Positions 14,785 to 35,175 of a DNA stretch of 35,175 bases are shown piece after piece. Numbering within the stretch: the stretch's first letter is position 1; the number at the start of each line of letters is the position of its first letter. Under the pieces are notes generated by a model. That model was not told the origin of the DNA, did no database searches, and was given only the letters and a program-made list of their open reading frames with translations. Made by a program: the position numbers and the translations under genes. Source of the stretch: a bacterium (GTDB lineage Bacteria; Bdellovibrionota_C; UBA2361; CALJRW01); assembly GCA_031385045.1 (NCBI GenBank), contig JANNBC010000055.1:1-35175 (forward strand). The letters run 5' to 3'.

Positions 14785-17163
14785 ATGTTCCATTTTTTTG
14801 AAATTTTATTTCTAGAGTTTTGTCACTGGTATTTTGGTACTAGTTTTATCCTTGGGTTGCCAGTTTTTCTATTGGCCTGCGGGTTCATTATCTTACAATT
14901 CTTTAAACAAGAAAAAGCGATCCTGCCAGGGATAGTTGCATTATGTTTACTAACTGTTGAATTCTTTCATATTTTCAGATCGGAAGACACTGTCACGCGA
15001 ATCGCTAGTTATATTTTAGAACTTCAAGCTAACGGCACATACGTCCAGCCTTTTCCTGTTGCCATCAATTGGTTTTGTGAGCCAATCTTCTCTGTCCTGG
15101 TTGCCCCTTATGAATTACGTCGTCTGCACCAAGAAATAATTTTTGTGTTGATGGCTTCTTATTTTGCAAGCTTAGCCGTTATTAGTTTCAAAGAATATAA
15201 AAGAACTGGTGTTGTTTGGGGAGATTTATCATTTGCCGCAATTGCTCAGTTTAAAGATAGCGATCGTCCCGTACGATCTGATTTTAATGAATTAGGTTCT
15301 GGTGATTTGGCTCGTGCTGAAGAAATTAATCACTGGACAAAACCATCAGGTAAGCCAAACGATACGATTCTTCATGTTACAGACATTCGAGGTTCGAGTG
15401 GAGTAATTCATAAAGAAGCTAAACTTTATATTCCTGGTGGCGAAAGAAACCGTCACATGTTGGCCATAGCGAAAACCGGGGGTGGTAAAACTACTAAATT
15501 AATTCTTCCAATTCTATACAATGACTGTATGGATAATTCCCGAAGTACAATTGTTATCGATTCTAAACCAGAGATGTGGGGAAAATTAGCAAATCTTGTT
15601 AAAAAGAATAATCCTCATAAAAAAATTATCCTGTTTAACCCCCTTGATCGAGCTAGAAGTCTAAGCTGGAATATCCTAGCAAAAATTGAAACTGATACTG
15701 ATGCCAAACTAATTGCCAATACAGTTATTATGGCGACTGATAACCCACAGTCAAAATCGGATAGTCCATTCTTTCGAAACAATGCTCTATCCTTGCTAAA
15801 CTCAATCTTCGTGGGATTACTAAACGATGATAATGATATCCTATCCATGCCCCGAGTTCACCAACTTGTACAATCTGGGATGAAGGGTCTTTGTGACTGG
15901 TTAGAAGCTCACCCAGAGTCGATTCGAACAGCACGATCATTTGTAGATTTAGCCCGTTCAGGATCGCAGAATGCTGATACAATCATGTCCGAACTTTCCA
16001 TGCGAATTAATGCTTGGGACTTATCAGACATTCGTGCCACAACTGCTTTCAATGAGATTGATTTGCGCTGTCTGATAGAAGAGCCAACTTTATTTATTGT
16101 GGAACTTCGCGAGTCAGAGTTGGAAATGTTACGACCGCTGGCTAACGTAATCGTGATCGAACTTCTTAGATATTTAACCAAATGTGCGGAATCATTTCCA
16201 GGCAATAGACTTCCGATCCCTGTTGGATTTGTAATCGATGAGTTTGCCTCTGCTCTTGGTCGCTTACCAGATATTCACGTCAAACTTAACACTCTCCGTT
16301 CGCGTAATGTGAGCATCGTTGCTGCGATTCAGTCAATTACTCAGGTTAAAGCAAATTATGGAGATGACTCTGATTCAGTTCTAGCCGGCTTCAGTACTAA
16401 GATCTGTATGCCAAACTTGGATATCCAAGATGCTGAGTGGGCCTCCAAAGAAAGTGGTCAAATGACCATCCGTTTTCAAACTACATCGACTGGTAGTAAC
16501 CGTAAGATTGTGGAAATGTTTGCTAGCAAAAATACTGGTTCACAAGAACAAGTTCAACAACGTGCCGTATTAACTCCAGACGAAATTGGGCGTCCACTTG
16601 ACGGAAGAAATACTTTCTTCTTACCAGATACTCAACCCTTCCAGGGCTTTCTTGTTCCCTTCTATAAAATTCCTCATATGCTAAGAGAAATCGAAGCTTC
16701 AGAGAAAGGACCAAAATGGCAACTTCGAGAGTCTCCAATTGAATATTCGGAAAATGATGTCAAAAAAGAATTGGGCAATTCTACAACTGGTGGCGGAGGT
16801 GGCAGTGCTCCAGCAGCCAGCTCCTATGCTAACAATGGATTACCACCTGGAATAACTGACACTCGTGGAATGTCGGACGCTGACATTCTGGCTAAAATTG
16901 ATGGTTGCCGTAAGAGTCTTGATTGGGAGAATACCACTGGCAGTGCTAGAAAATGGTGGCAAACTTTTGAAGATGAAAACAAACATCGCCCCGCATTGGT
17001 ACTAAGACTGGCAGAAGAATTAGTAACAAGAAATGCCACAATTAGTGAATTTTTCCTATCATATGTTTATAGCAATACAGATAATATTCAAGCGAATCTC
17101 CACTATCTTGATTACAGTAGATTAAAGAAAGAGGAAGAAAAGAAGAAGCAGGAAGCAGCGTAA
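14785..17163 (+). CDS. VirD4/TraG-like type IV coupling ATPase with N-terminal TM segments and an extra C-terminal domain
   Basis: Walker A (AKTGGGKT), VIDSKPE, FNP..SLSWNIL, Walker B (FVIDEF), QSITQVKANYG, AEWASKESG and RAVLTPDEI, all typical of T4CP/TraM-recognition-domain proteins. Confidence 0.85.
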   Translation: MFHFFEILFLEFCHWYFGTSFILGLPVFLLACGFIILQFFKQEKAILPGIVALCLLTVEFFHIFRSEDTVTRIASYILELQANGTYVQPFPVAINWFCEPIFSVLVAPYELRRLHQEIIFVLMASYFASLAVISFKEYKRTGVVWGDLSFAAIAQFKDSDRPVRSDFNELGSGDLARAEEINHWTKPSGKPNDTILHVTDIRGSSGVIHKEAKLYIPGGERNRHMLAIAKTGGGKTTKLILPILYNDCMDNSRSTIVIDSKPEMWGKLANLVKKNNPHKKIILFNPLDRARSLSWNILAKIETDTDAKLIANTVIMATDNPQSKSDSPFFRNNALSLLNSIFVGLLNDDNDILSMPRVHQLVQSGMKGLCDWLEAHPESIRTARSFVDLARSGSQNADTIMSELSMRINAWDLSDIRATTAFNEIDLRCLIEEPTLFIVELRESELEMLRPLANVIVIELLRYLTKCAESFPGNRLPIPVGFVIDEFASALGRLPDIHVKLNTLRSRNVSIVAAIQSITQVKANYGDDSDSVLAGFSTKICMPNLDIQDAEWASKESGQMTIRFQTTSTGSNRKIVEMFASKNTGSQEQVQQRAVLTPDEIGRPLDGRNTFFLPDTQPFQGFLVPFYKIPHMLREIEASEKGPKWQLRESPIEYSENDVKKELGNSTTGGGGGSAPAASSYANNGLPPGITDTRGMSDADILAKIDGCRKSLDWENTTGSARKWWQTFEDENKHRPALVLRLAEELVTRNATISEFFLSYVYSNTDNIQANLHYLDYSRLKKEEEKKKQEAA

Positions 17164-19674: not shown

Positions 19675-19720
19675 ATTTGTCTTTTTAAAATTTTACGTTA
19701 TACTTCGACTTCACTTGTGT

Positions 19721-19802
19721 GCCGGGGTGGCGGAATTGGTAGACGCGCCGGATTCAAAATCCGGTATCCTTGGATGTGCGAGTTCGATTCTCGCCTCCGG
19801 TA
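19721..19802 (+). tRNA. tRNA-Leu (anticodon CAA)
   Basis: Acceptor stem GCCGGGG/CTCCGGT, D-arm GGCGGAATTGGTAGACGC, anticodon arm CCGGA-TTCAAAA-TCCGG, long variable arm, T-arm GCGAG-TTCGATT-CTCGC, discriminator A. CCA is not encoded. Confidence 0.96.
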
Positions 19803-19824
19803 GAAATATAGAAAAATTCAATAA

Positions 19825-19948: not shown

Positions 19949-21025
19949 ATGGCAACTATTCAGAAACTCACCAGTAAAAAAAGAGGCATTCGCTATAAAG
20001 TGAGAATTGCCCGTCAAGGTAACAAAGTTATTTGTGCAACCTTCGACCGAAAAATTGATGCAGAAACATTTGCTAGAGAACATGATACTCAAGCTAGAGC
20101 CCAAAAATATCTTGATAAAGAAGAGTCTAAAAAACACACCCTAAATGACGCGATAGAACGCTATCTTGCTGAAGGACATTTAAACGAACTAAAGACTAAG
20201 GTTGAAAGAACAAAGCAACTAGAGCTTATCAAGAAGCTATTTGGGGACATCCAACTTTATCAACTAACCAAGCCGGCTACTATTAGCAACATCGAAACAA
20301 TATTAAAAAAATATCAAGGGAAGGAAGATAAAGTTCTAAGTAATGCCAGAGTAAATCGCTACTTCTCCGCCATGAGTCACCTATGTCAAATCGCTTATGA
20401 GAGTTGGTACTGGATTGATATAAATCCTTTCAGGGCAATCAGAAGAAAAAAAGAAGCAAGTTTTTCTGGTCGTTGCCTCACTGATGAAGAATTTAAAAAT
20501 CTAAAAAAATACTGCGAAGAAAATTCCAAAGAGGAGATTTGCATTATCGTCATGCTAGCTATTTGTACTGGCATGAGAAAAAATGAAATCCGCTATCTAT
20601 CTTGGGATGATGTTAATTTAATCGAAAGAACTATACATTTGAAAGATACCAAGAACGGTAGCCCAAGAACAATTCCACTTGTTGAACCTGCTCTATCAAT
20701 GCTTAAAGCACACGCTAAACTTAGAAACATCAAATCAAATTGGATTTTTGTTGGAAAGAACTCCGAACAAACCACCTACCCTTTTTCTATTACAAAACCT
20801 TGGGACAACTTAAAAACCGAAACTAAAATAACTAACTTTAGATTTCACGACTTACGACATACTTGCGGAAGTCATCTGGCGAAGAACAATGTCAGCCCAA
20901 GAATCATCGCTGCGATACTTGGGCATAAAACCTTAGCTATGGTGATGAAGTATTCTCACCTTGCCGTGGAAGACCAGAGGGAAAGTTTAGAAGAAATGAC
21001 TAAAAAGATATTTAACAATGGATGA
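19949..21025 (+). CDS. Tyrosine recombinase / phage-type integrase
   Basis: Catalytic set TGMRKNEI, TKNG, FHDLRHT, LGHK, KYSHL; N-terminal arm-binding-like segment. Confidence 0.95.
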   Translation: MATIQKLTSKKRGIRYKVRIARQGNKVICATFDRKIDAETFAREHDTQARAQKYLDKEESKKHTLNDAIERYLAEGHLNELKTKVERTKQLELIKKLFGDIQLYQLTKPATISNIETILKKYQGKEDKVLSNARVNRYFSAMSHLCQIAYESWYWIDINPFRAIRRKKEASFSGRCLTDEEFKNLKKYCEENSKEEICIIVMLAICTGMRKNEIRYLSWDDVNLIERTIHLKDTKNGSPRTIPLVEPALSMLKAHAKLRNIKSNWIFVGKNSEQTTYPFSITKPWDNLKTETKITNFRFHDLRHTCGSHLAKNNVSPRIIAAILGHKTLAMVMKYSHLAVEDQRESLEEMTKKIFNNG

Positions 21026-21743: not shown

Positions 21744-21959
21744 ATGACAAATAACAATACAAAACGCTTTTACACCTTCAAGCAGTAGGCTGAGGAAAAA
21801 GGCGACCCTTCAGAAAGTGCCCTTCGTTGGATGCACCATACAAACAAAGACGGTTTTAGTGATGCGTGCGTTGTTCGTCGAGGAAAACGGGTCTTAATTG
21901 ACTCTGAGACTTACACTCAATGGCTTCTGAAACAAAACAATCAACAATTTTCAAATTAG
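21744..21959 (+). pseudogene. Excisionase/AlpA-like winged-helix gene with one in-frame amber stop
   Basis: SD AGGAG at 21731, ATG at 21744. Translates as MTNNNTKRFYTFKQ*AEEKGDPSESALRWMHHTNKDGFSDACVVRRGKRVLIDSETYTQWLLKQNNQQFSN, with TAG at 21786-21788. Sits between int and primase. Confidence 0.75.
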
Positions 21960-21967
21960 GAGAAGAT

Positions 21968-24013
21968 ATGAAACAATATAATGCAAATGAATTAGCAACA
22001 AAACTTGGGAAAAAACAAAAGGCTGGAGCAGGATGGAACTGTTCTTGCCCTGCCCATGATGATAAAATTGCAAGCCTCACAATTACAGACGGAAAAGATA
22101 GTAACCCAATATTTTACTGTCATGCTGGTTGTAGTTTTGAGAATATTATTAATGCACTCATAGCAAAAGGCTTATGGGAGAAGAAAACATTAAAGGATAT
22201 AAATTATGTTAAGTCCAAAAATAAAGAAGTAGTTTATAACTACACCAATGCAGATGGAGCTACCCTCTATCAAAAGGTACGGTTTGGCGTGAAAAAATTC
22301 TACGGTCGCCAAATCCTACCTACAGGAGAAACCATTAAAGGGATTCCAAAATATCGCGTCATATATAATTTACATGAAGTAATAAAAGCTCGAAATGATG
22401 GAACTTCGATTATACTATGCGAAGGCGAGAAAGACGCAAACAACCTTATTAGTTTAGGCTATGTTGCAACAACAATCTTTGAAGGTGGCGGTAAAAAATG
22501 GAGACCAGAGTACACTGAGCAACTAAAGGATTCGATACTTTATCTTTGTCCAGATAATGACATTGCCGGTTTGGAATTTATCAATAATGCCGCAGGACAA
22601 CTCAAAGACGTTGTAAAATCAATCAAATTAATTGAGTTACCTAACCTAGAAAACAAGGAAGATGTAAGCGACTGGATAAACAAAGGTGGAACAAAGGAGC
22701 AGCTTGACTCCCTTATTGAATCCGCACAAGTATACCACCCAACAAAAAATACTAAACCAGATGGTTTGTTGCAAAACGAATATGCCTACGCATGGCAATT
22801 GGTAGAGTCATTGGGCAAGGACAATATTATTTTCTCCAGAGGTATGTTCTACCATTGGGATTATTCAGGGGTTTGGAAAGCTAAAGATGACAGAGAAATT
22901 ATTCAGCTACTGCATAGGTTAATTCCGGAGAAAGTCACAAGGGCTCTGGATAATTCTGTTATTGAACTTATCAAAACCGAATGTTTTAAAAGCAGTGATA
23001 TATTCGATACTAAGCAAAACATTATTAACTGTCTTGATTGTGAGGTCTTAGTTAGTGATAAAGGTTATGAAAAGAGGAGACATTTAAAAGGTAGCTATTC
23101 ACTCTCTCAAATTCCGTTTTCATTTAATCCTAATGCTGAATGTCCGAATTTCATTAGTGCATTAAACGAATGGTTCGATGGAGATGCTGATAAGGAAGAA
23201 AAAAAACAAGTAATTTTTGAAATGCTTGGGTATTCACTTTTAGCTACTGCTAAATTAGAAAAATTTATTATTCTCGTTGGAGCAGGTGCAAATGGGAAAT
23301 CTGTCTTACTGGATATAGTAAGAGAGCTGTGTGGAATTAAGAATACTGCCAGTGTTGGAATCTTAGGTCTTAGTCAAAAATTCCAACGTGCATATTTGAG
23401 TGGCAAGTTAGCAAATATTGTAACAGAGCTTTCGCAAGGATGCATGATTCCAGATGGCGAACTGAAATCAATTGTAAGTGGCGAACCCCTTGCCGTGGAA
23501 ATCAAGTTTAAAGACCCATTTGATTTTTGTCCTTACTGCACGATGTGGTTTGCAACAAATCATATACCGTCTACTAGGGATTTCTCAGACGCCTTATTTA
23601 GAAGAGCAATAATACTAGAATTTAACAATCAATTTAATGATGAAAAAAGAGATATACATCTTAAGGAAAAGTTAAGAAAGGAACTTGAAGGAATTCTATA
23701 CAAATCAATAATTGCAATCACAGAGGTAATGCGTAGAGGTTCATTTACTGAACCTAGTTCGAGTCAAAAAAGAATTGATGAATGGAAAATTGAGAGTAAT
23801 CCGATTGAGTTATTCATTGAAGATAGTTGCAATTTAACCCCTTCTGCTTACGTTGGCTCAAGTAAATTATACGATGCTTATGTTAAGTGGCAAGATGGCT
23901 GTGGGGCAATCGACATTACTCAAACTATGCTTGTTCAGAGGCTTAAATCATTTGGTGTTAGCACCGGTAAGAGATATGGGGAAAGAGTGCTTGTTGGTAT
24001 AGACTTAAAATAA
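21968..24013 (+). CDS. Phage/plasmid P4-family primase-helicase (Zn-binding + TOPRIM + D5/SF3 helicase)
   Basis: CPAHDD...CHAGC Zn motif, CEGEKDA and PDND TOPRIM motifs, GAGANGKS Walker A, WFATNH, ALFRRAII. ATG 21968 follows SD AGGAG; the ORF track gives 21920. Confidence 0.92.
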   Translation: MKQYNANELATKLGKKQKAGAGWNCSCPAHDDKIASLTITDGKDSNPIFYCHAGCSFENIINALIAKGLWEKKTLKDINYVKSKNKEVVYNYTNADGATLYQKVRFGVKKFYGRQILPTGETIKGIPKYRVIYNLHEVIKARNDGTSIILCEGEKDANNLISLGYVATTIFEGGGKKWRPEYTEQLKDSILYLCPDNDIAGLEFINNAAGQLKDVVKSIKLIELPNLENKEDVSDWINKGGTKEQLDSLIESAQVYHPTKNTKPDGLLQNEYAYAWQLVESLGKDNIIFSRGMFYHWDYSGVWKAKDDREIIQLLHRLIPEKVTRALDNSVIELIKTECFKSSDIFDTKQNIINCLDCEVLVSDKGYEKRRHLKGSYSLSQIPFSFNPNAECPNFISALNEWFDGDADKEEKKQVIFEMLGYSLLATAKLEKFIILVGAGANGKSVLLDIVRELCGIKNTASVGILGLSQKFQRAYLSGKLANIVTELSQGCMIPDGELKSIVSGEPLAVEIKFKDPFDFCPYCTMWFATNHIPSTRDFSDALFRRAIILEFNNQFNDEKRDIHLKEKLRKELEGILYKSIIAITEVMRRGSFTEPSSSQKRIDEWKIESNPIELFIEDSCNLTPSAYVGSSKLYDAYVKWQDGCGAIDITQTMLVQRLKSFGVSTGKRYGERVLVGIDLK

Positions 24014-25926: not shown

Positions 25927-27045
25927 TCAATCCCAAGAGGAGTCATAAATTATTTGTTGCCATACGTTTTGGAATCCCTTATCAGACACCTGATGCCAAT
26001 TTTGAGCTAACATCAGCTTCTCAAGTGCATGACACGCAGTGGTATCATCCTCCGTTAATGAATAAAAATTTTCTTTGGAAAGAAGCAACTTAATAATTAA
26101 TGGGTAAGCATATACGCTTAATAATAAATACTCGAAATCTGCCCATCCCCAATTAGAATGAACCTTCTTTGAATGAATATGGTAATTTCTTCTTTTATAA
26201 AATTCATACATCCATGCTTTGAGTAACGACCAAGAAGCAATACTCCCCTTTTCCGCAGAAAGGTCAATATTTCTCCCTGCGGTTATTGCATCGTCAACTG
26301 TTTCTTTTGAAAAAGGCATAAATAGTTCTTCAAATTTAATACTTAGCTGTAATGCTTTTTGCCCAGAATCAATTTGAAATATTGTTTCATAAGCTGAAGA
26401 CATTAGGATTAATTCCGACTCAGGGGTCATGTTATAGCTATCCGTATTAGCTAATGCTACAAAATTTAAAGTCGATACAAGTAAATTAAAAACCTCCGCT
26501 CCATCTTCTTTTGCCTTAAGCAATGAAGTTAATAAAATTAAATCTATCTTAACTTTATCTCCTATCTGATAATGAGGAGGTGCTTCCCTAAAAATTTGAT
26601 TAAAATTATACCCACCGACAATGGACTCGCCGTCTCGTCGTCTTATAGTTAGTGCAACGCTCTCGGGATTAGCGGATGAAAATCGTTGTCCGACAATATT
26701 AAATAAAGAACTATTAGTATAGCTACTTATCTGATTATAATACTTATTGGTTGATATGCCACAGAAGAATATTATCTTTGCATATCCAGCAATTTCAAAA
26801 AATTGCTCTTCGGGTATGTTCCAAGGCACTTCCAGGTCTTTGTTTATAATTAGAGTTAAATCGGAAATGCAGTTCCCTTGTATATCCTTATGCGACGAAC
26901 AAAAAAAATCAATTTTTCGAATAACCTCATTGTCTAAATTAGAATATCCACAAGTCTTGCCAACAGGAAGCAAGGTAATATGATTGAAACTGATGGCTTC
27001 ATCTAATTGAAGCCAAGGCATAAAGATAAGAAAGCTAGTATTCAT
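25927..27045 (-). CDS. Putative HEPN-domain protein (ApeA-like architecture)
   Basis: LMSSAYETIF helix followed by YKRRNYHIH (Rx4H) in the C-terminal half. Confidence 0.65.
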   Translation of the reverse strand: MNTSFLIFMPWLQLDEAISFNHITLLPVGKTCGYSNLDNEVIRKIDFFCSSHKDIQGNCISDLTLIINKDLEVPWNIPEEQFFEIAGYAKIIFFCGISTNKYYNQISSYTNSSLFNIVGQRFSSANPESVALTIRRRDGESIVGGYNFNQIFREAPPHYQIGDKVKIDLILLTSLLKAKEDGAEVFNLLVSTLNFVALANTDSYNMTPESELILMSSAYETIFQIDSGQKALQLSIKFEELFMPFSKETVDDAITAGRNIDLSAEKGSIASWSLLKAWMYEFYKRRNYHIHSKKVHSNWGWADFEYLLLSVYAYPLIIKLLLSKENFYSLTEDDTTACHALEKLMLAQNWHQVSDKGFQNVWQQIIYDSSWD

Positions 27046-28538
27046 ACTTTTGTTTTAAGTTCAATTTTATCAAAAATCCTTGAAAATTCATCATTTAAAA
27101 ATGGCAATTCAGCATCAACTTGAGTGTATTCCTCAAGATACATCCTAAAAGTGAATCGTCTTGTACTGGGATTATCTTCCTTAATTTTCAAATCTTCAAG
27201 GAAGTCCTTTAGGTTAATTAAATCATTCTTTACTAAATAAAAAACTACCTCTAGGTCATCAATTGTCAGAAAAAAGATATTGCAAATAGGAAGTGTTTCA
27301 AAATCAAAGGTCTTAGCATTTTCACGTAAAGCAACTTTGATAAATTCTGACCATGCTCTTTGCATACTACCAAAATATAATTCTTTATAGGTTACAATAA
27401 ATGCAAAGTTAATTTGTGAACTCAAATTGAAACTACCCACCCCATTTTGTAGCTTTACGTAGTTAATGAAATCATAAAATTGCTTTACAGCTTTTATTGA
27501 ATGGCATTTTTGCGTATTAATTAGATTAATATCAGTGGGGTCTTCTCCTGCAACCCACGACAATTCCGTCGCCTTTGCCTCAATCAAGACTGAATAAGCA
27601 TCGCTGATTAATCCAAAATCTACATTTTTAATGTCTTTAGGAAATGACATATTGTGATTAAAGTTTACAAATTTTAACCCTGAATATTCTAGGCATTTTT
27701 GAATATACCTTTCAAAGACTAAACCAAAATGCTGAGAAAAAGATTCTTTATCTTCATATCTGAAAAAATCATACAGTGAATACTTACAAAAACGATTTAC
27801 AAGACAAGGAGCGATTATTAAATATTCATTATTTATTTTAATTAATGGGTAACGAAAAAATGGTGAGTTCTCATAAATTTGACGTTCAGCGGATTTTTCT
27901 CTCGTATCAGATTTTTGTCTTGCAAAAATTTTAGCATCTTCTAAGTCAGTTGATATAGAATCTAAGAATAATATTATCTGCCTCTTTCCTATAAGCTCAA
28001 CAGTTGGACCAAATAAATCGATTGATATTTTGGTATTCTTAAGTTCAAAGACCAATGCATATAAAAGAAAAAGCATTAGAAAATAATCTTCGAGTTCAAC
28101 ACCTGACTTAGAAAGTAACATACTCTTAACTTCATACTTACTGTTAATTTGTTTGAAAATTATAGATTGTCGAGCAAAATCTCTTTTGTGTACATTTTCA
28201 GAAACCCAAAATTGTTGATATGCTATGGCTCTTACTGGTTTATCAATATTATTGTAACGTGAAAAAATTGGAGTATCAAAAAATGACTGAATATTGCCAA
28301 TTATTTTTCTAAAGTCATTATAATTTGCAATCTTATTTTTAGAGTTAGTTCCGGCATGAGCAAGAATTAACTTAAAAGCAAACAATACATGCCATTCTAG
28401 AAAATCAGTTCTTTCTAGACCTAATTTTGTTTTGGAAATTTCGTGAAGTTTATGAACGCAGAAGTAAAATAAACTATCAAAATTATAGGAGGAAATATTA
28501 TTTTTAATAGTTTTCAAATCAACTGGCAGTCCCTTCAT
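27042..28538 (-). CDS. Putative PD-(D/E)xK nuclease, possibly GapS1-like anti-phage protein
   Basis: FGLVFERYI...KNVDF...LIEAK...Q motif order after a long helical N-terminal region. The family resemblance is from memory only. Confidence 0.6.
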   Translation of the reverse strand: MKGLPVDLKTIKNNISSYNFDSLFYFCVHKLHEISKTKLGLERTDFLEWHVLFAFKLILAHAGTNSKNKIANYNDFRKIIGNIQSFFDTPIFSRYNNIDKPVRAIAYQQFWVSENVHKRDFARQSIIFKQINSKYEVKSMLLSKSGVELEDYFLMLFLLYALVFELKNTKISIDLFGPTVELIGKRQIILFLDSISTDLEDAKIFARQKSDTREKSAERQIYENSPFFRYPLIKINNEYLIIAPCLVNRFCKYSLYDFFRYEDKESFSQHFGLVFERYIQKCLEYSGLKFVNFNHNMSFPKDIKNVDFGLISDAYSVLIEAKATELSWVAGEDPTDINLINTQKCHSIKAVKQFYDFINYVKLQNGVGSFNLSSQINFAFIVTYKELYFGSMQRAWSEFIKVALRENAKTFDFETLPICNIFFLTIDDLEVVFYLVKNDLINLKDFLEDLKIKEDNPSTRRFTFRMYLEEYTQVDAELPFLNDEFSRIFDKIELKTKV

Positions 28539-30829
28539 ACACTAGCAACTACAGAGTCAAGAAGGTTAATTTCTTTTAATGATTTGGCTCTAATTACATC
28601 TTCAAGCCTATCACAACGTTGCATTAGTTGGTCAATTTTCTTAACTATTCTTAATTGTTCTTTGATAGGTGGAAGAGGAAATGGATTATTTGAAAAAAAA
28701 TCTGTGGGTACTCGTTTCTGACCTGCAGAACCCGTCATCTTAGTTGCTCCAAGCGATAAATATCTCGGATTTTTTAAATAATTAAGCAAAAATCTTGGAT
28801 TTACAATGGAGTAGATATCTCTAAAAATATGCAATTCAGTAGTTCCTGCCCCAATACCATTAGGCAAATCATAGAAGACGCAAGACTTAGCATTTTCAAA
28901 ACATGGTGTAATCTTTGCTAAGCCAACATCTCTATTTTGAAAATGAGTATAGCCTTTTTTTATTTCACTCCATTTCTTGGTTTGAAATGTATGAACAAAG
29001 CTATATCCAGCAGAAATATGAGGCATAGAGACAAACCCAACATCTTTGTCATCTTCACAATTATTTCTAGGATTAATTAACCCAACCTCGCCTAACCTTA
29101 CCCACTCCCAACCATTTGGTAATTCATAAGGAATTTCCTCAGGAGTTATACTTGGTAATGGACTAGAATGCTTTATCTTTCTATCTTTAACTAACTTTTG
29201 TTTTTCCTTTGATACTTCCTTTAGTACCTCTCTGGTTGGTCTATCGCTTGGTTCTTGCGGGACAAGTTTTCCTTGCATAGCTAGAGTTAAGATTAGTTCT
29301 CTTAGTTTTTTGATTCCATTAGGAGCAAAAAATGCTATGTCTAAATGTTTTTTGAGTATTTTTTTTTGTTGACCTTCTAATGATTGAATTAATACATTTT
29401 TTAATTCATTTTGAATTTCTAGAAGATTATTTTTAAGTTCCTGATATTCACAAAATAAAGTATCAGGATTGGCATGAACGACCGCAACTCTATGTGGATT
29501 TTTACAATCAAAATTAAAGTTTCGTTCACAAAGTTCCTTGACGGACATTTTCCATGCGTTCTCAGTAACTTTACGACTTTTGCGTGTTGCTCCTCCCCAC
29601 CATTTTTTTTCTAAGTTAAACTCTTCAATAGTAAGTGGCTTAGACCTTGAGTAGGACTTATAGCCTTCTGGATATGGATGCTCAAAGAACCAGACATCTT
29701 TTGTTGAACCACCTTTTTCAAAAAACAAGATATTAGTTGAAATATTTGTATAAGGGCTAAAGACACCCTTTGGTAGGCGAACAATAGTGTGAAGATTAAA
29801 CTCGTTTAAAAGCTCTTGTTTTATTGTAGTTTTGACACCTTCCCCAAATAGAAATCCATCAGGGAGAACAACAGCTGCCTTTCCAGTATTTTCCCTAAGA
29901 AGATGCATAATAAGAGCCATGAATAAATCGGCAGTCTCACGTGTTTGAAACTTTTTTGGAAAGTTTTTTTCAATTCCGTCTTCTTCTATTCCGCCAAACG
30001 GTGGGTTCGTGATAATAATATCCACTCTGTCTTTTGGTGTATAATCTTTCAACGGTCGGCTTAAAGTGTTGTCATGGCGGATATTCGTTGGGACATCAAT
30101 CCCATGAAGCATCATATTAGTCATAGCTAGCATGTGAGGAAGGGGCTTCTTCTCAATCCCATTAATACTAGACTGAAGTATTTTCATATCTGAATTATTT
30201 TTTACTTGTTTATTAAGATGTTCAATCGTACAAGTAAGAAACCCCCCTGTTCCACAAGCAGGGTCTAGTATCTTATCTCCTAGTTGCGGGTCTAAAATAT
30301 CAACCATGAATTGAGTAACGGCTCTCGGGGTATAATACTCGCCCGCATTTCCTGCTGATTGAAGGTCAGCTAAGATTTTTTCATAAATATCATTAAATAA
30401 ATGCCTATCCTTAGAGGAATTAAAATCTACATCAGCTTCAATCGTATTAATGACTTGACGAAGCAACGTGCCAGACTTCATGTAATTATAAGCATCTTCG
30501 AATACAGAACCAATTACTCGACCCTGAGGGGAAACCCCCGCAGTTGTCGCTAGTTTTTTTAAGGCAGGAAAAAAATCATTATTAACAAAATCAATTAATT
30601 CTTCACCTGTTATACCCTCAGCATCTTTTGCCCAGTTAGACCAACGATACCGAGTTTGTAATGGAGACTTATAATTTGGGATAGTTACTTGCCATTCTTG
30701 TTCCTTATCATCAAATATCTTAAGGAATAGTAACCAAACAATCTGGCTAATACGCTGTGCATCTCCATCGACACCAACATCTTTACGCATAATATCTTGG
30801 ATGGTTTTTATAAGAGAAGTGATAGACAT
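28535..30829 (-). CDS. hsdM: Type I RM methyltransferase HsdM fused in frame to a half (single-TRD) HsdS
   Basis: GEYYTPR, DPACGTGGF, NPPF (N6-adenine MTase). Then GIKKLRELIL..GKLVPQ, PYELPNGWEWVRL, one TRD and PLPPIKEQLRIV, then stop. Confidence 0.9.
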   Translation of the reverse strand: MSITSLIKTIQDIMRKDVGVDGDAQRISQIVWLLFLKIFDDKEQEWQVTIPNYKSPLQTRYRWSNWAKDAEGITGEELIDFVNNDFFPALKKLATTAGVSPQGRVIGSVFEDAYNYMKSGTLLRQVINTIEADVDFNSSKDRHLFNDIYEKILADLQSAGNAGEYYTPRAVTQFMVDILDPQLGDKILDPACGTGGFLTCTIEHLNKQVKNNSDMKILQSSINGIEKKPLPHMLAMTNMMLHGIDVPTNIRHDNTLSRPLKDYTPKDRVDIIITNPPFGGIEEDGIEKNFPKKFQTRETADLFMALIMHLLRENTGKAAVVLPDGFLFGEGVKTTIKQELLNEFNLHTIVRLPKGVFSPYTNISTNILFFEKGGSTKDVWFFEHPYPEGYKSYSRSKPLTIEEFNLEKKWWGGATRKSRKVTENAWKMSVKELCERNFNFDCKNPHRVAVVHANPDTLFCEYQELKNNLLEIQNELKNVLIQSLEGQQKKILKKHLDIAFFAPNGIKKLRELILTLAMQGKLVPQEPSDRPTREVLKEVSKEKQKLVKDRKIKHSSPLPSITPEEIPYELPNGWEWVRLGEVGLINPRNNCEDDKDVGFVSMPHISAGYSFVHTFQTKKWSEIKKGYTHFQNRDVGLAKITPCFENAKSCVFYDLPNGIGAGTTELHIFRDIYSIVNPRFLLNYLKNPRYLSLGATKMTGSAGQKRVPTDFFSNNPFPLPPIKEQLRIVKKIDQLMQRCDRLEDVIRAKSLKEINLLDSVVASV

Positions 30830-30830
30830 A

Positions 30831-33194
30831 TTAAGCGATATAAAGTTCTTTTTCTAACTCACTGATTGCTTGTTTGTAATTTTCAAGTCCACCGAAAGAA
30901 TTTACAATTTCGGTTGGAGTTCCAAATTCGCTAAAAGGAGAAATAGTTAAAATCTTGGGTTCTTCAATTTGTAAGATGCCCTCATCCATATACTTATTTA
31001 GGAGTGCTTCAATCACTCGTTGTGCCTTTTCACCATACTTGGTGAAGTAATTTCTTTTTTTGACATTGTCAGCACGCTCTTTTCTAGAAAGTGGTGGCAT
31101 ATCCCACGCAATATGACAGACTAGGTCGAATGGGTCGTAATCTTTGCCAATCTCTTCCGCAAGTGCTTCAAAGAAAACTCCTTCATTGGATAGCTCCTCA
31201 ATAATTACTTGTTTCTTCTCAGCACTGCTCCATTTTTGAAGAAAATCATTTACTGAAGCATATTCCTTAGTAAGAGTTTTTCTTGTGTAATCTTTTAATG
31301 ACTCAGTTATCAGTTTTCCATTTGCATCAAAATATTGAACTCTTTCTGCTACTACCATTACGGGCACATTATCAACCACATATCTTTTAGTTGACTGTGC
31401 GTCCACTATCGGAGTCTCTGCAACTTCGTCCCAATCTATTGGCTCTTCATTCTCTGGGTATATTAAATTATCTCCATCTTCGTAATCCTCAGGAGGGACT
31501 GGTGAATCATCGATAGATGCCGGTGTATAAATTTGCACAGGCTTTCCATCAAAATCTGGGTCAGCAAAAAGCTCGGTAGCTTTTTTAAAATCCATTATAG
31601 TAAAATAAAACTTATTATAATCTTCGTTTATTCGAGTACCCCTACCAATTATTTGCTTGAATTCAGTCATCGACTGGATGTTCTGGTCTAGGACTATTAA
31701 CTTGCAGGTTTGAGCATCAACTCCTGTGGACATAAGTTTTGAAGTGGTAGCAATTACTGGATATTTGGATTCAGGGAAAATAAAATTATCAAGCTCGGCT
31801 TTACCTTCTTCATTATCACCGGTAATCCGCATAATATATTTATGATTTTCACTAACAAGGTCAGAGTTTTGATTAGCAAGAGCCTGCCTCATTCGCTCTG
31901 CGTGGTCGATGTTTTCACAAAAAACAATTGTCTTATCAAACCTATTTGTCTCTTTTAGAAAATCACTAATTTTCTTAGCAACTAGCATCGTTCTGGCTTC
32001 AATCACTAAGTTACGGTCAAAGTCTTTGGCGTTATAAATCCTATCTGGAATTTCATTTCCGAATTTATCAATCATGCCTTTTTCAGGTCTCCAACCTTCA
32101 AGGTCTTTATCAATATCGATTCTTACAACTTTGTAAGGAGCAAGGAATCCATCATCGATACCTTGCTTTAGTGAATATGTATAAATAGGTTCGCCAAAAT
32201 AATCGATATTTGAGACTTCTCTAGTTTCCTTAGGTGTTGCGGTTAATCCAATTTGTGTGGCAGAGCTAAAGTATTCTAGAATTTTACGCCACGCAGAATC
32301 TTCGGCAGCACTCCCCCTATGACACTCATCAATAATAATTAAATCAAAGAAATCAGGACTAAATTGCTTGTAGATATTCTGCTCTTCTTCATTTCCAGTT
32401 ACGGCTTGATATAAAGAAAGATAAATTTCATATGCCTTAATAGCTTGTCGCTTCTGGATTTTAGTCATTGCTGAGCCAAAGGGCTTAAAGTCATTGGTAA
32501 TCGTTTGGTCAACAAGAATGTTGCGGTCTGCTAAAAATAAAATTCGTTTTTTAGTTTTTGATTTCCATAAACGCCAAATAATTTGAAAAGCGGTAAATGT
32601 CTTCCCTGTTCCTGTCGCCATTACCAGTAAAATTCTATTTTGCCCTTTTGCAATTGCCTCTATAGTTTTGTTAATAGCTAGGACTTGATAATAGCGAGGC
32701 TCTCTACTTGTCCCTTCGCTATAGTAATCTTGCATTACTAAATCTGTTTGTTTTTCATCTAGACCCTTTTGATTTTTCCAAGATTGCCAAAGGGTTTCAG
32801 GAGAAGGAAATTCCTCTAAGGACAATTCCCTTTCGATTACGCCATCAGGGGACAGCTTATTATGAAATAGAAATCCATCTCCATTAGAGCTAAAAACAAA
32901 TGGAACCTGAAGCATTTCAGCATAGCCAAGTCCCTGTTGCATACCATGCCCCACCGTATGCTTATTATCTTTTGCTTCGATAACTGCTATTGGGATATTA
33001 GGCTTATAAAACAGAACATAATCTGGTCGTTTATTTTTCGCTCTGGTGTGTAACTTGCCACGAACGATTACACGTCCCTTAGTTAAGGGGTATTCCTCTC
33101 GAATTTGAGTTGTAACATCCCAGCCAGCTTTCTCTAGTGCAGGAGTGATGTATTTTGTGCAAATGTCTCTTTCCGTTAAATCTTTCTTATTCAT
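30831..33194 (-). CDS. hsdR: Type I restriction subunit HsdR, EcoAI-like
   Basis: PDY..IEAK nuclease motif, [26 protein letters not shown]; EcoEI-like C-terminus; 787 aa. Confidence 0.95.
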
Positions 33195-33200
33195 TACAAA

Positions 33201-34106
33201 TTAAACTTCGAAGTAATCACTATCAATTTTTTTAATCTCATACTTCTTTACTAAAGAAACCCCAATGTCATAATCAATCATGTAATCAGCAAGTAACCTG
33301 CCATCGATTAGAATGATTTTTTTATCTGTGGACTCCGCATAATTCATGGCATCATTAGAAAAACCAGAAGTGGTAATAAAGACTCCCTTGTTAGCTTTTT
33401 TACCTGAGAGTGCACCAACAAACTTTTGAATCTCTGGTCTTCCAACGGTTCCTGCCCAGCGTTTTGCTTGAATGTAAATAATATCCAGTCCAAGTTTGTC
33501 TTCTTTGATGATACCATCGATACCCTCATCTCCGCTCATTTTGGTAGCCTGAGCAGCGTCATCAAAACTACCGCCGTATCCCATGGCAACTAGTAATTGA
33601 ACAACTAGCCTTTCAAAAAAAGCAGGAGAACTATCAGCAATGGCTTGAAGTAGTTCCTCTGCTAACTGGGCTCTAATTTTAGTATATGATGATTGAATTT
33701 CCTCTTCTGGTGTTTCAGTCGGAAGCACCTCATGAATCTCCTCTGTTGCAGGCTGATTTTTTTTATTCTTAAACTCATTGAACTCAGGAAAGGTTGCAAG
33801 CAGGCGATTATTAATTTCTTGAATGTTGGTACTCAGTAGCTCTTTGCCACGTTTTGAAATCTGGAAGAATCCCCTTTTTTTAACTTCTAGAAGCTGTGCT
33901 TTTACTAAGTATGTCCTTGCCCAACCAACGCGACCCGTAATGTAAGTCTGACTACCACTTGGAATCATTATGTTTTGTTCTTCAGGGGTAAGTTTAAAGT
34001 ATTCAATCATTGCTTGAGTCGCATTTTTGACACGAATCTCTCCGCTTTGACTATTCGCAAATTTGAGAAGAGGGAGCATTATTTCTTGATACTGTGGGAT
34101 ACTCAT
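33201..34106 (-). CDS. mrr: Mrr-family type IV restriction endonuclease
   Basis: N-terminal MSIPQYQEIMLPLL / RVGWARTYL winged helix; FFERLVVQLL, GDEGIDG, YIQAKRW, GVFITTS. Confidence 0.93.
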   Translation of the reverse strand: MSIPQYQEIMLPLLKFANSQSGEIRVKNATQAMIEYFKLTPEEQNIMIPSGSQTYITGRVGWARTYLVKAQLLEVKKRGFFQISKRGKELLSTNIQEINNRLLATFPEFNEFKNKKNQPATEEIHEVLPTETPEEEIQSSYTKIRAQLAEELLQAIADSSPAFFERLVVQLLVAMGYGGSFDDAAQATKMSGDEGIDGIIKEDKLGLDIIYIQAKRWAGTVGRPEIQKFVGALSGKKANKGVFITTSGFSNDAMNYAESTDKKIILIDGRLLADYMIDYDIGVSLVKKYEIKKIDSDYFEV

Positions 34107-34227
34107 TGATGTTTATTGTAGGCATTAGCAATTTAGAATAATAGGAAGGCTCTGGCAATTGATAATAACTCTAAAGTAACCTTGAAACGGCTAACCAATA
34201 TTTTACGTGGGTATCACGATGTGTAAA

Positions 34228-35175
34228 TCACTTCTCACTAATTGAGTTTTTCGAATAATTTGCTGTGAACTCAGATATTCGTTGACTCATCTGGCTAATT
34301 GGTTCTTTAAGTACACGCTCAAGCCTAAGCATTGCATCAATCATAGTTGGAATCATATCGTCCCATTTTTCAGGCTCCATGATATTACCCTCGAACTCGA
34401 CCTTGATTCTACAAGCTCGCTTATTTTCAAGCCTTTCCCAAGTCAATGGACCACCAAAATCATTTTCGATTTTTTCTTTCTGGTTTAATAGGGTTTCAAA
34501 AATAAATTCATTTTCATCTTTGTCCCCTCTATCAATGTAGAGTTCCGCCCTTCCAAAGGAGTTAGTGACCACAAAGTTAAGTCCTAATCCCCTAACTCCT
34601 GTGCTACTCCCAATCCAATGTCCCATATGTGGGTTAATATTTTGATAACGCTTGGAGCCAGTTGAATTCCACATTTTTAGTAACTTAGTCCAAAACTCCT
34701 TTCGTAGACGAAGCCGGACTCGCTCATGCTTTGAAGAGTCTATATCATCTTGTGCCTTATCTGCTATTCTAATCATGTAATCTTCGGCGTCCCGCGTTGG
34801 TATGATTTGCTCCATGCTTAAAAAGAACTCCTCTCCCATGACATATGGAGTTGCGATAAAACACTGTAAGTTTATTTTAAAGTTCATTAGCCACAAAACT
34901 GTACTTGTCACCTCTTTTCTGAATTTTGCAGCAATAAAAATAATTCTCTGTGAAACTCCTTTGTTTAAAGTTATTTCCTCAAAATCCTGTCCTTCCAAGA
35001 ACTCCACAATAAGGTCTTCTGCTTTGCCAGATGCCCCCATAGCATCTAAATAATCCTGATAAATCTTGACGATATTAGCCTTGGATAAACTAGAGCAATA
35101 AGATGCATATTTTAAAGCCTGCCAAACGACATCCCTTCCCGAATCATCTAATTTATTTTCAATTACTACAAGATT
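34228..35175 (-). CDS. NucS/DUF91-like nuclease with C-terminal DUF4268-like domain (5' end outside window)
   Basis: The frame stays open from 35040 to the window edge, reading NLVVIENKLDDSGRDVVWQALKYASY (ExK...Q..Y). The C-terminus has FWTKLL...IENDFGGPLTWERL..KRACRI. Confidence 0.8.
   Translation of the reverse strand, partial: NLVVIENKLDDSGRDVVWQALKYASYCSSLSKANIVKIYQDYLDAMGASGKAEDLIVEFLEGQDFEEITLNKGVSQRIIFIAAKFRKEVTSTVLWLMNFKINLQCFIATPYVMGEEFFLSMEQIIPTRDAEDYMIRIADKAQDDIDSSKHERVRLRLRKEFWTKLLKMWNSTGSKRYQNINPHMGHWIGSSTGVRGLGLNFVVTNSFGRAELYIDRGDKDENEFIFETLLNQKEKIENDFGGPLTWERLENKRACRIKVEFEGNIMEPEKWDDMIPTMIDAMLRLERVLKEPISQMSQRISEFTANYSKNSISEK

Follow-up and report, generated by a model that had tools for sequence, protein, structure and literature searches.

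What kind of enzyme is encoded by a Type I restriction-modification (R-M) locus in which HsdM and HsdS share one chain and a single target recognition domain (TRD) is present? In the classical modification core, as reviewed in 2014, two M subunits and one S subunit (M2S1) are arranged with one M per TRD, and the two TRDs of HsdS are inverted and held by antiparallel conserved helices (Loenen 2014, PMC3874165). The locus studied here lies on contig JANNBC010000055.1 of the bacterial assembly GCA_031385045.1 (Bdellovibrionota_C) and carries a fusion gene, hsdM~S1/2 (28535..30829, minus strand; 764 amino acids (aa) and a stop codon), directly downstream of hsdR. The window that we analyzed is the whole contig, 35,175 bases long, from an assembly of 61 contigs and 2.83 Mb that is 94.9% complete. 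The gene encodes an EcoAI-family HsdM fused in frame to one HsdS repeat, and we consider it likely that copies of the protein pair and rebuild the modification core, and that the resulting enzyme methylates and, together with HsdR, restricts a palindromic bipartite site.

HsdM and one HsdS repeat unit in a single reading frame

The frame of the fusion is open throughout, and its start at 30829 is backed by homologues, which begin at the same methionine; the version of the product made by a database gene caller (P0002) begins 13 residues downstream. Pfam places the HsdM N-terminal domain (HsdM_N, PF12161) at residues 4-130 (30440..30820, minus strand, as are all parts of the gene) and the N6-adenine methyltransferase (MTase) catalytic domain (N6_Mtase, PF02384; E 1.6e-70) at residues 141-446 (29492..30409). 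The MTase motifs are intact, with the S-adenosylmethionine (SAM) motif DPACGTGGF at residue 189 and the catalytic NPPF at 275, and the M part shares 83-84% identity with ordinary split Type IB HsdM proteins. A Pfam scan of the 764 aa found no nuclease or helicase domain, so the protein does not have the single-chain layout of Type IIG or Type ISP enzymes, and its score on the MADS MAD2 methyltransferase profile NF047738 (104 bits) falls below the cut-off of 720.

When residues 440-764 were used as a query, the search returned ordinary HsdS proteins, mostly of 555-615 aa and some of about 790 aa, along with the window's own product. The longer ones (P0003, P0026, P0049 and the like) continue for about 220 aa past the second TRD at their C-terminus. 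Two alignments to P0004, a normal HsdS of 565 aa, define the limits of the fused S part. The first, at 59% identity, pairs residues 491-764 with residues 8-278 and contains no gaps, whereas in the second alignment residues 447-764 match residues 248-565, so that both proteins finish on their last residue and the last 40 residues of the fusion match the true C-terminus of P0004. The leader of the S part was then compared with two profiles, one of HsdS N-termini and one of HsdS central regions, made from 89 split HsdS proteins; it scored 62.9 bits on the N-terminus type and 16.5 bits on the central-region type. Because of these alignments and this leader score, we assign the S part as exactly one EcoAI-type HsdS repeat unit, judged from sequence comparison. 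The unit consists of the N-terminal conserved region with its linker helix (residues 491-570, 29120..29359), one TRD (Methylase_S, PF01420; residues 571-744, 28598..29119) and the native, long C-terminal conserved helix, a predicted dimerization helix (residues 722-763, 28541..28666). An earlier reading of this DNA, made from the letters and hereafter called the sequence-only reading, had described about 490 aa of HsdM running into an EcoAI-type HsdS N-terminus, one TRD, one conserved helix and a stop; Pfam, the HsdS alignments and the leader profiles all bear this out, and the seam falls at residues 485-490.

An AlphaFold2 monomer model, built from an alignment of 20 sequences (mean predicted local distance difference test (pLDDT) score 86.5, predicted template modelling score (pTM) 0.60), shows the same layout. 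The HsdM fold ends in a C-terminal helix at residues 455-483 (29381..29467), followed by two short helices within 487-518, the linker helix at 532-548, a mixed TRD at 575-719 and a single terminal helix of 42 residues at 722-763.

The partner subunit is complete as well. The hsdR gene (30831..33194, minus strand; 787 aa, EcoAI/FtnUII family) lies upstream of the fusion, and its stop comes 1 nucleotide (nt) before the fusion start. Its product scores 1230.5 bits on the EcoAI/FtnUII equivalog NF046051 (cut-off 550), covering profile positions 1-767 of 768, and has a C-terminal EcoEI_R_C domain (PF08463, E 1.9e-36). The locus thus shows an EcoAI-family HsdR and a gamma-class N6-adenine HsdM, both Type IB traits, while the separate two-TRD HsdS is absent, the one TRD being fused. 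This arrangement bears on the idea that the fusion is a stand-alone homodimeric gamma-MTase of the M.XmnI or M.DrdI kind, independent of the adjoining HsdR. M~S homodimers do modify interrupted palindromes in several Type II systems, according to the 2014 review (PMC3874165). Nevertheless, the M part here is that of an ordinary Type IB HsdM, the gene starts 1 nt after an EcoAI-family hsdR, an EcoAI-type hsdR stands directly upstream of the one-TRD fusion in all five fused loci found elsewhere (L014, L146, L148, L156 and L180), and a Pfam scan of the window revealed no Type II endonuclease adjoining the fusion; we regard a stand-alone MTase as highly unlikely.

This anatomy supports a self-sufficient M~S1/2 protomer, since it would provide one M per TRD, flanking conserved helices, intact motifs and an intact HsdR. 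The stoichiometry of such a protomer suits a homodimer that rebuilds the core, which would then have to read an inverted repeat. Two copies of the fusion would pair via their conserved helices, giving an (M~S1/2)2 core equivalent to M2S1. Such a core would read an inverted repeat of one half-site, that is, a palindromic bipartite target, which it would methylate and, with HsdR, restrict, making a two-gene Type I enzyme. It is by analogy with the half-S enzymes compared below that we infer dimerization, a symmetric target and activity in vivo for the window fusion.

The proposal gains from the lack of another specificity subunit. The sequence-only reading had noted no other hsdS in the window, and this extends to the whole 61-contig assembly: the TRD of the fusion was the sole match of a PF01420 profile search, and the S part used as a protein query matched only itself at E up to 1. 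A very divergent second HsdS could escape the PF01420 search, as Pfam misses the TRD in 14 of the 48 long HsdM-like representatives described below. A 372-aa protein encoded in the window (orf372) was considered as a cryptic second HsdS and rejected, its best BLASTP match to a full HsdS having an E of 0.44 and Pfam giving no match. The isolate Flavobacterium psychraquaticum LB-N7, which carries one of the fused relatives (L014), has other, unrelated HsdS genes besides its fusion, whereas none was found in the window genome by these searches.

The M/S seam, fused relatives and the origin of the join

Among split relatives, the hsdM stop overlaps the hsdS start in 117 of 151 loci, as ATGA in 87 and as TGATG or TAATG in 30. 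At the equivalent point (residues 485-490) the window fusion reads through, giving an end-to-end join that is essentially free of linker. An A9 run (T9 on the plus strand; 29359..29367, residues 487-491) is positioned exactly on this seam and is the sole homopolymer of at least nine in the 35-kb window. If the tract is shortened or lengthened by one base, the M frame terminates at 495 or 503 aa, which is normal for HsdM, and in either shifted version no ATG, GTG or TTG precedes the conserved region in the S frame.

One explanation of the seam is an assembly or sequencing error: the true A tract would be 8 or 10, hsdM would end normally, S would be a separate or dead frame, and the fusion would be an artefact. 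The placement of the seam on the window's only long homopolymer is in line with such an error, as is the normal-length HsdM that a one-base change restores. The same change, however, leaves an S frame devoid of those start codons, and the half-S is in every case a clean single unit with a native C-terminus. Moreover, neither the five fused loci nor P0122, a further joined relative, has a homopolymer of at least eight at the seam. We consider an artefact very improbable.

The tract could also be a switch. The fusion would then act as proposed above, and slippage in A9 would alternate the active fusion with a bare HsdM that lacks a TRD, shutting off modification and restriction together. The shifted states, with a normal-length HsdM and an untranslatable S, would suit this role; the tract is rare in the genome and lies exactly on the seam, and 30 of the 151 split relatives have homopolymers of 6-7 within the last 36 nt of hsdM. 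Nine bases are nonetheless short for a dedicated contingency tract, and a genome of 36.8% G+C makes A runs easily (401 A/T runs of length 8 and 44 of at least 9, of which 27 lie within about 2.05 Mb of long open reading frames). As the seam run is also absent from all five fused relatives, phase variation appears doubtful. A switch of this kind, which we think improbable, would have an inherently safe OFF state that no layout other than the fused two-gene one could offer.

A G6-G7 run stands just upstream of the hsdM/hsdS ATGA overlap in many split Type IB loci (L108, L116, L123 and others). In loci such as L108, a +1 slip in the G7 run would be predicted to bring the full-length hsdS in frame with hsdM.

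Fusions of similar length exist elsewhere, and many of them carry a single TRD. When 1.84 billion cluster representatives were searched exhaustively with HMMER, 53 matches were at least 650 aa long, and 48 of these were scanned with Pfam; the long HsdS proteins P0147, P0233 and P0252 and the N-terminally extended HsdM proteins P0187 and P0189 were left out. Exactly one PF01420 stretch was found in 34 of these 48 long HsdM-like representatives and none, at E up to 0.001, in the other 14; two stretches, as expected of an HsdM fused to a full two-TRD HsdS, were found in 0 of 48. P0122 (766 aa), one of the 14 without a PF01420 match, nevertheless aligns with the window fusion from end to end (65% identity), its conserved flanks enclosing a different TRD. 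Among the loci of close relatives, the fused form occurred in 1 of 80 from genomes (L014) and in 4 of 80 from metagenomes (L146, L148, L156 and L180), the remaining loci being split, and relatives from 40 genomes of the same order included no fused copy. The window fusion is no isolated case. In the five fused loci, the M parts are close to the window's, whereas the TRDs are unlike the window's and, by alignment, unlike one another; with hsdR upstream in each, the two-gene layout is conserved while its TRDs are swapped. The cargo is also unlike the window's, the next gene encoding in all five an AAA_15/AAA_21 ATPase of 621-634 aa. That of L014 weakly matches TIGR04435 ("restriction system-associated AAA ATPase"), and a PLD-like nuclease gene follows the ATPase in L156 and L180.

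Split relatives thus far outnumber fused ones, and the window gene lies in a mobile island with cargo turnover, as might be expected if the locus were an inactive remnant, that is, a decaying Type I locus that lost half of its hsdS and in which accidental read-through from hsdM yields no working specificity. The intact reading frames and MTase motifs, the full-length HsdR and the retention of exactly one repeat unit with both conserved flanks argue otherwise. So does the persistence of the layout across diverged lineages whose TRDs have been swapped, a hallmark of functioning S modules, and we judge a remnant to be unlikely.

The TRD itself is a common one. We surveyed 70 split HsdS proteins, parsed by patterns from 119 listed, and in all 70 found a TRD sharing 40% identity or more with that of the window: 47 carry it solely at position 1, 7 solely at position 2 and 16 at both. 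Because it is found at position 1, position 2 or both, this TRD type functions at either position of HsdS. In the 16 proteins with the type at both positions, the halves are 79-100% identical. Symmetric full-length HsdS proteins with this TRD type do occur in nature, and they are obvious substrates for collapse to a half-S via recombination between halves.

In order to follow the history of the join, we built three trees on the HsdM M domain. In a FastTree of 111 rows, comprising 42 fused sequences (all those collected) and a chosen subset of 69 split ones, 17 changes are required to explain the fused label, and well-supported branches force at least 11 of these. A quick IQ-TREE search of the close clade (43 rows, 7 of them fused) gave 4 changes; a tree uniting the fused rows of this clade was 309 log-likelihood units worse (p-AU, approximately unbiased test, 4e-104), the fused group for the test having been named after inspection of the first tree. 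A careful IQ-TREE search of the same clade gave 4-5 changes, and a single origin appeared in 0 of 200 bootstrap trees. Fused genes are spread across the HsdM tree, with no fewer than 4 changes within the close clade and no fewer than 11 in total, so the state seems to have arisen or reverted repeatedly, and recombination between hsdM genes may have contributed to the pattern.

The leader types also suggest independent origins, with at least two routes to fusion. By the profiles described above, the leaders of the window fusion and P0122 are of the N-terminus type; those of L014, L146, L156 and L180 come closer to the central-region type, with L148 a borderline case. In the central-region-type lineages, a single deletion starting at the hsdM end and reaching the middle of hsdS could account for the join. 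In the window lineage, a frameshift at the seam would have joined hsdM and hsdS, and one repeat of a symmetric two-TRD HsdS would have collapsed, leaving one unit; a single frameshift would suffice to join the genes because the stop of hsdM and the start of hsdS overlap in split relatives.

The operon and its island

The genes around the fusion are tightly spaced: 6 nt separate the Mrr-type gene from hsdR, 1 nt separates hsdR from the fusion, and the fusion overlaps the next gene by 4 nt. The latter (27042-28538, minus strand) encodes a GapS1-like protein of 498 aa, scoring 251 bits on NF047931, below the cut-off of 320 (for GAPS1 see bioRxiv 10.1101/2023.03.28.534373), and is followed, again with a 4-nt overlap, by the gene of the 372-aa protein (25927-27045, minus strand), which belongs to no family and whose Atlas neighbours are hypothetical clusters without names. 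These two genes are perhaps defence cargo carried within the R-M operon. Upstream of hsdR (33201-35040, minus strand) lie the gene of the Mrr-type Type IV restriction enzyme, which stops 6 nt before hsdR, and, further upstream across a gap of 121 nt, a candidate defence gene (DUF4268 / PDC-S11).

A tRNA-Leu(CAA) (19720-19803) lies on the other side, followed by genes for a tyrosine integrase (19949-21025) and then for a D5/DUF5906 primase (21920-24013). As far as the end of the contig, the defence genes have the look of an island that integrated at tRNA-Leu(CAA) and whose far end lies off the contig. Across the tRNA from the island, between it and a polysaccharide synthesis cluster (about 5.2-14.4 kb), is a gene for a type IV secretion system coupling protein (TraG/VirD4-like; 14785-17163, plus strand).

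Comparison with known systems

Several characterized proteins resemble parts of the proposed enzyme. The half-S homodimers of EcoR124I HsdS(delta50), the EcoDXXI truncations and the natural NgoAV read interrupted palindromes (PMC3874165); like the window's S part they have a single TRD and a helix, but they are Type IC and free rather than fused. M.XmnI and M.DrdI, along with M.XcmI, are fused M~S homodimeric gamma-MTases that act on interrupted palindromes and modify for Type II systems, and M.AhdI, termed "Type 1 1/2", combines 2M and 2S with single TRDs on a symmetric bipartite site (PMC3874165). These enzymes share the single TRD with the window fusion, but they have Type II endonuclease partners and no HsdR motor subunit.

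The nearest engineered case is M1/2Sfus from Staphylococcus aureus CC398-1, in which HsdM is in frame with the first half of HsdS; it elutes at the size of a dimer, methylates the palindrome ACCN5GGT and, with HsdR, restricts in vivo and in vitro (Bower 2018, PMC6158711). M1/2Sfus is a laboratory construct from another Type I family, posed as a hypothetical evolutionary intermediate, whereas the window gene is natural and has the native HsdS C-terminal tail. Characterized Type IB enzymes methylate adenines 9 bp apart (Loenen 2014, PMC3874165); the exact spacer for the window fusion is not predictable, because the methylation spacing of the engineered half-S was shifted by 1 bp (PMC6158711).

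A natural single chain is known from Vibrio vulnificus YJ016, whose HsdM-S1/2 is described as a "minimal intact methyltransferase" (Seo 2022, Int J Biol Macromol 208:381, via PMC12429846) and two copies of which are reported to recapitulate M2S1 (PMC12429846, citing Seo 2022); PDB 7EEW holds this intact MTase (638 aa) in complex with Ocr. In a Foldseek search with the fusion model, 7eew_A was the sole top match spanning both M and S (769 columns, E 1.8e-27, TM 0.47/0.58). The novelty implied by the sequence-only reading was therefore overstated: with 7EEW as a natural and M1/2Sfus as an engineered case, the two-gene M~S1/2 layout is already known and the window is a further example. Literature searches, with REBASE and Seo 2022 itself outside their scope, found no paper on natural Type IB fusions; those aimed at natural fusions turned up engineered ones alone, and "hsdMS" in Pseudomonas papers denotes two genes.

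A number of points weigh against a working symmetric enzyme. The A9 tract at the seam could hide a length error or act as a switch, fused loci are outnumbered among close relatives, and activity and symmetry are argued by analogy. In its account of half-S homodimers, the 2014 review reports them solely for Type IC (PMC3874165). By sequence, 7EEW matches the window fusion in the M part alone (E 8e-34), and its S1/2 has no match to the window's S part at E up to 0.01; because the match is confined to the M part, 7EEW is probably a parallel case rather than an orthologue, and with the fused state scattered on the HsdM trees, that in Vibrio and that in the window are likely to be of independent origin.

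Three features are particular to the window case: it belongs to the EcoAI/Type IB family, the fusion recurs within that family, and an A9 run sits on the seam. A compact Type I design, documented so far by engineered constructs and by one natural case of solved structure, gains a Type IB example from it. The scatter of fused genes on the HsdM tree, the TRDs swapped between fused and split genes and the two or more routes suggest that this design is a recurrent outcome, which bears on models in which Type I systems evolve to simpler R-M types via M~S1/2 intermediates, as discussed in Bower 2018. A one-gene methyltransferase with a predictable symmetric target would also be easy to clone for methylome matching or for bypassing a restriction barrier.

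In summary, the window fusion, like that of V. vulnificus YJ016, is one chain of HsdM and a single TRD, which in the window fusion has conserved helices on both sides. The two lineages are distant, the window fusion belonging to the EcoAI/Type IB family and having the long N-terminal conserved region of that family; hsdR is in the same operon as the fusion, and the locus has no full-length hsdS. With EcoAI/Type IB systems it shares the HsdR family, HsdM, the conserved regions and the TRD (ordinary HsdS, 560-590 aa). Those systems have three genes and a two-TRD HsdS, whereas the window has two genes and one TRD.

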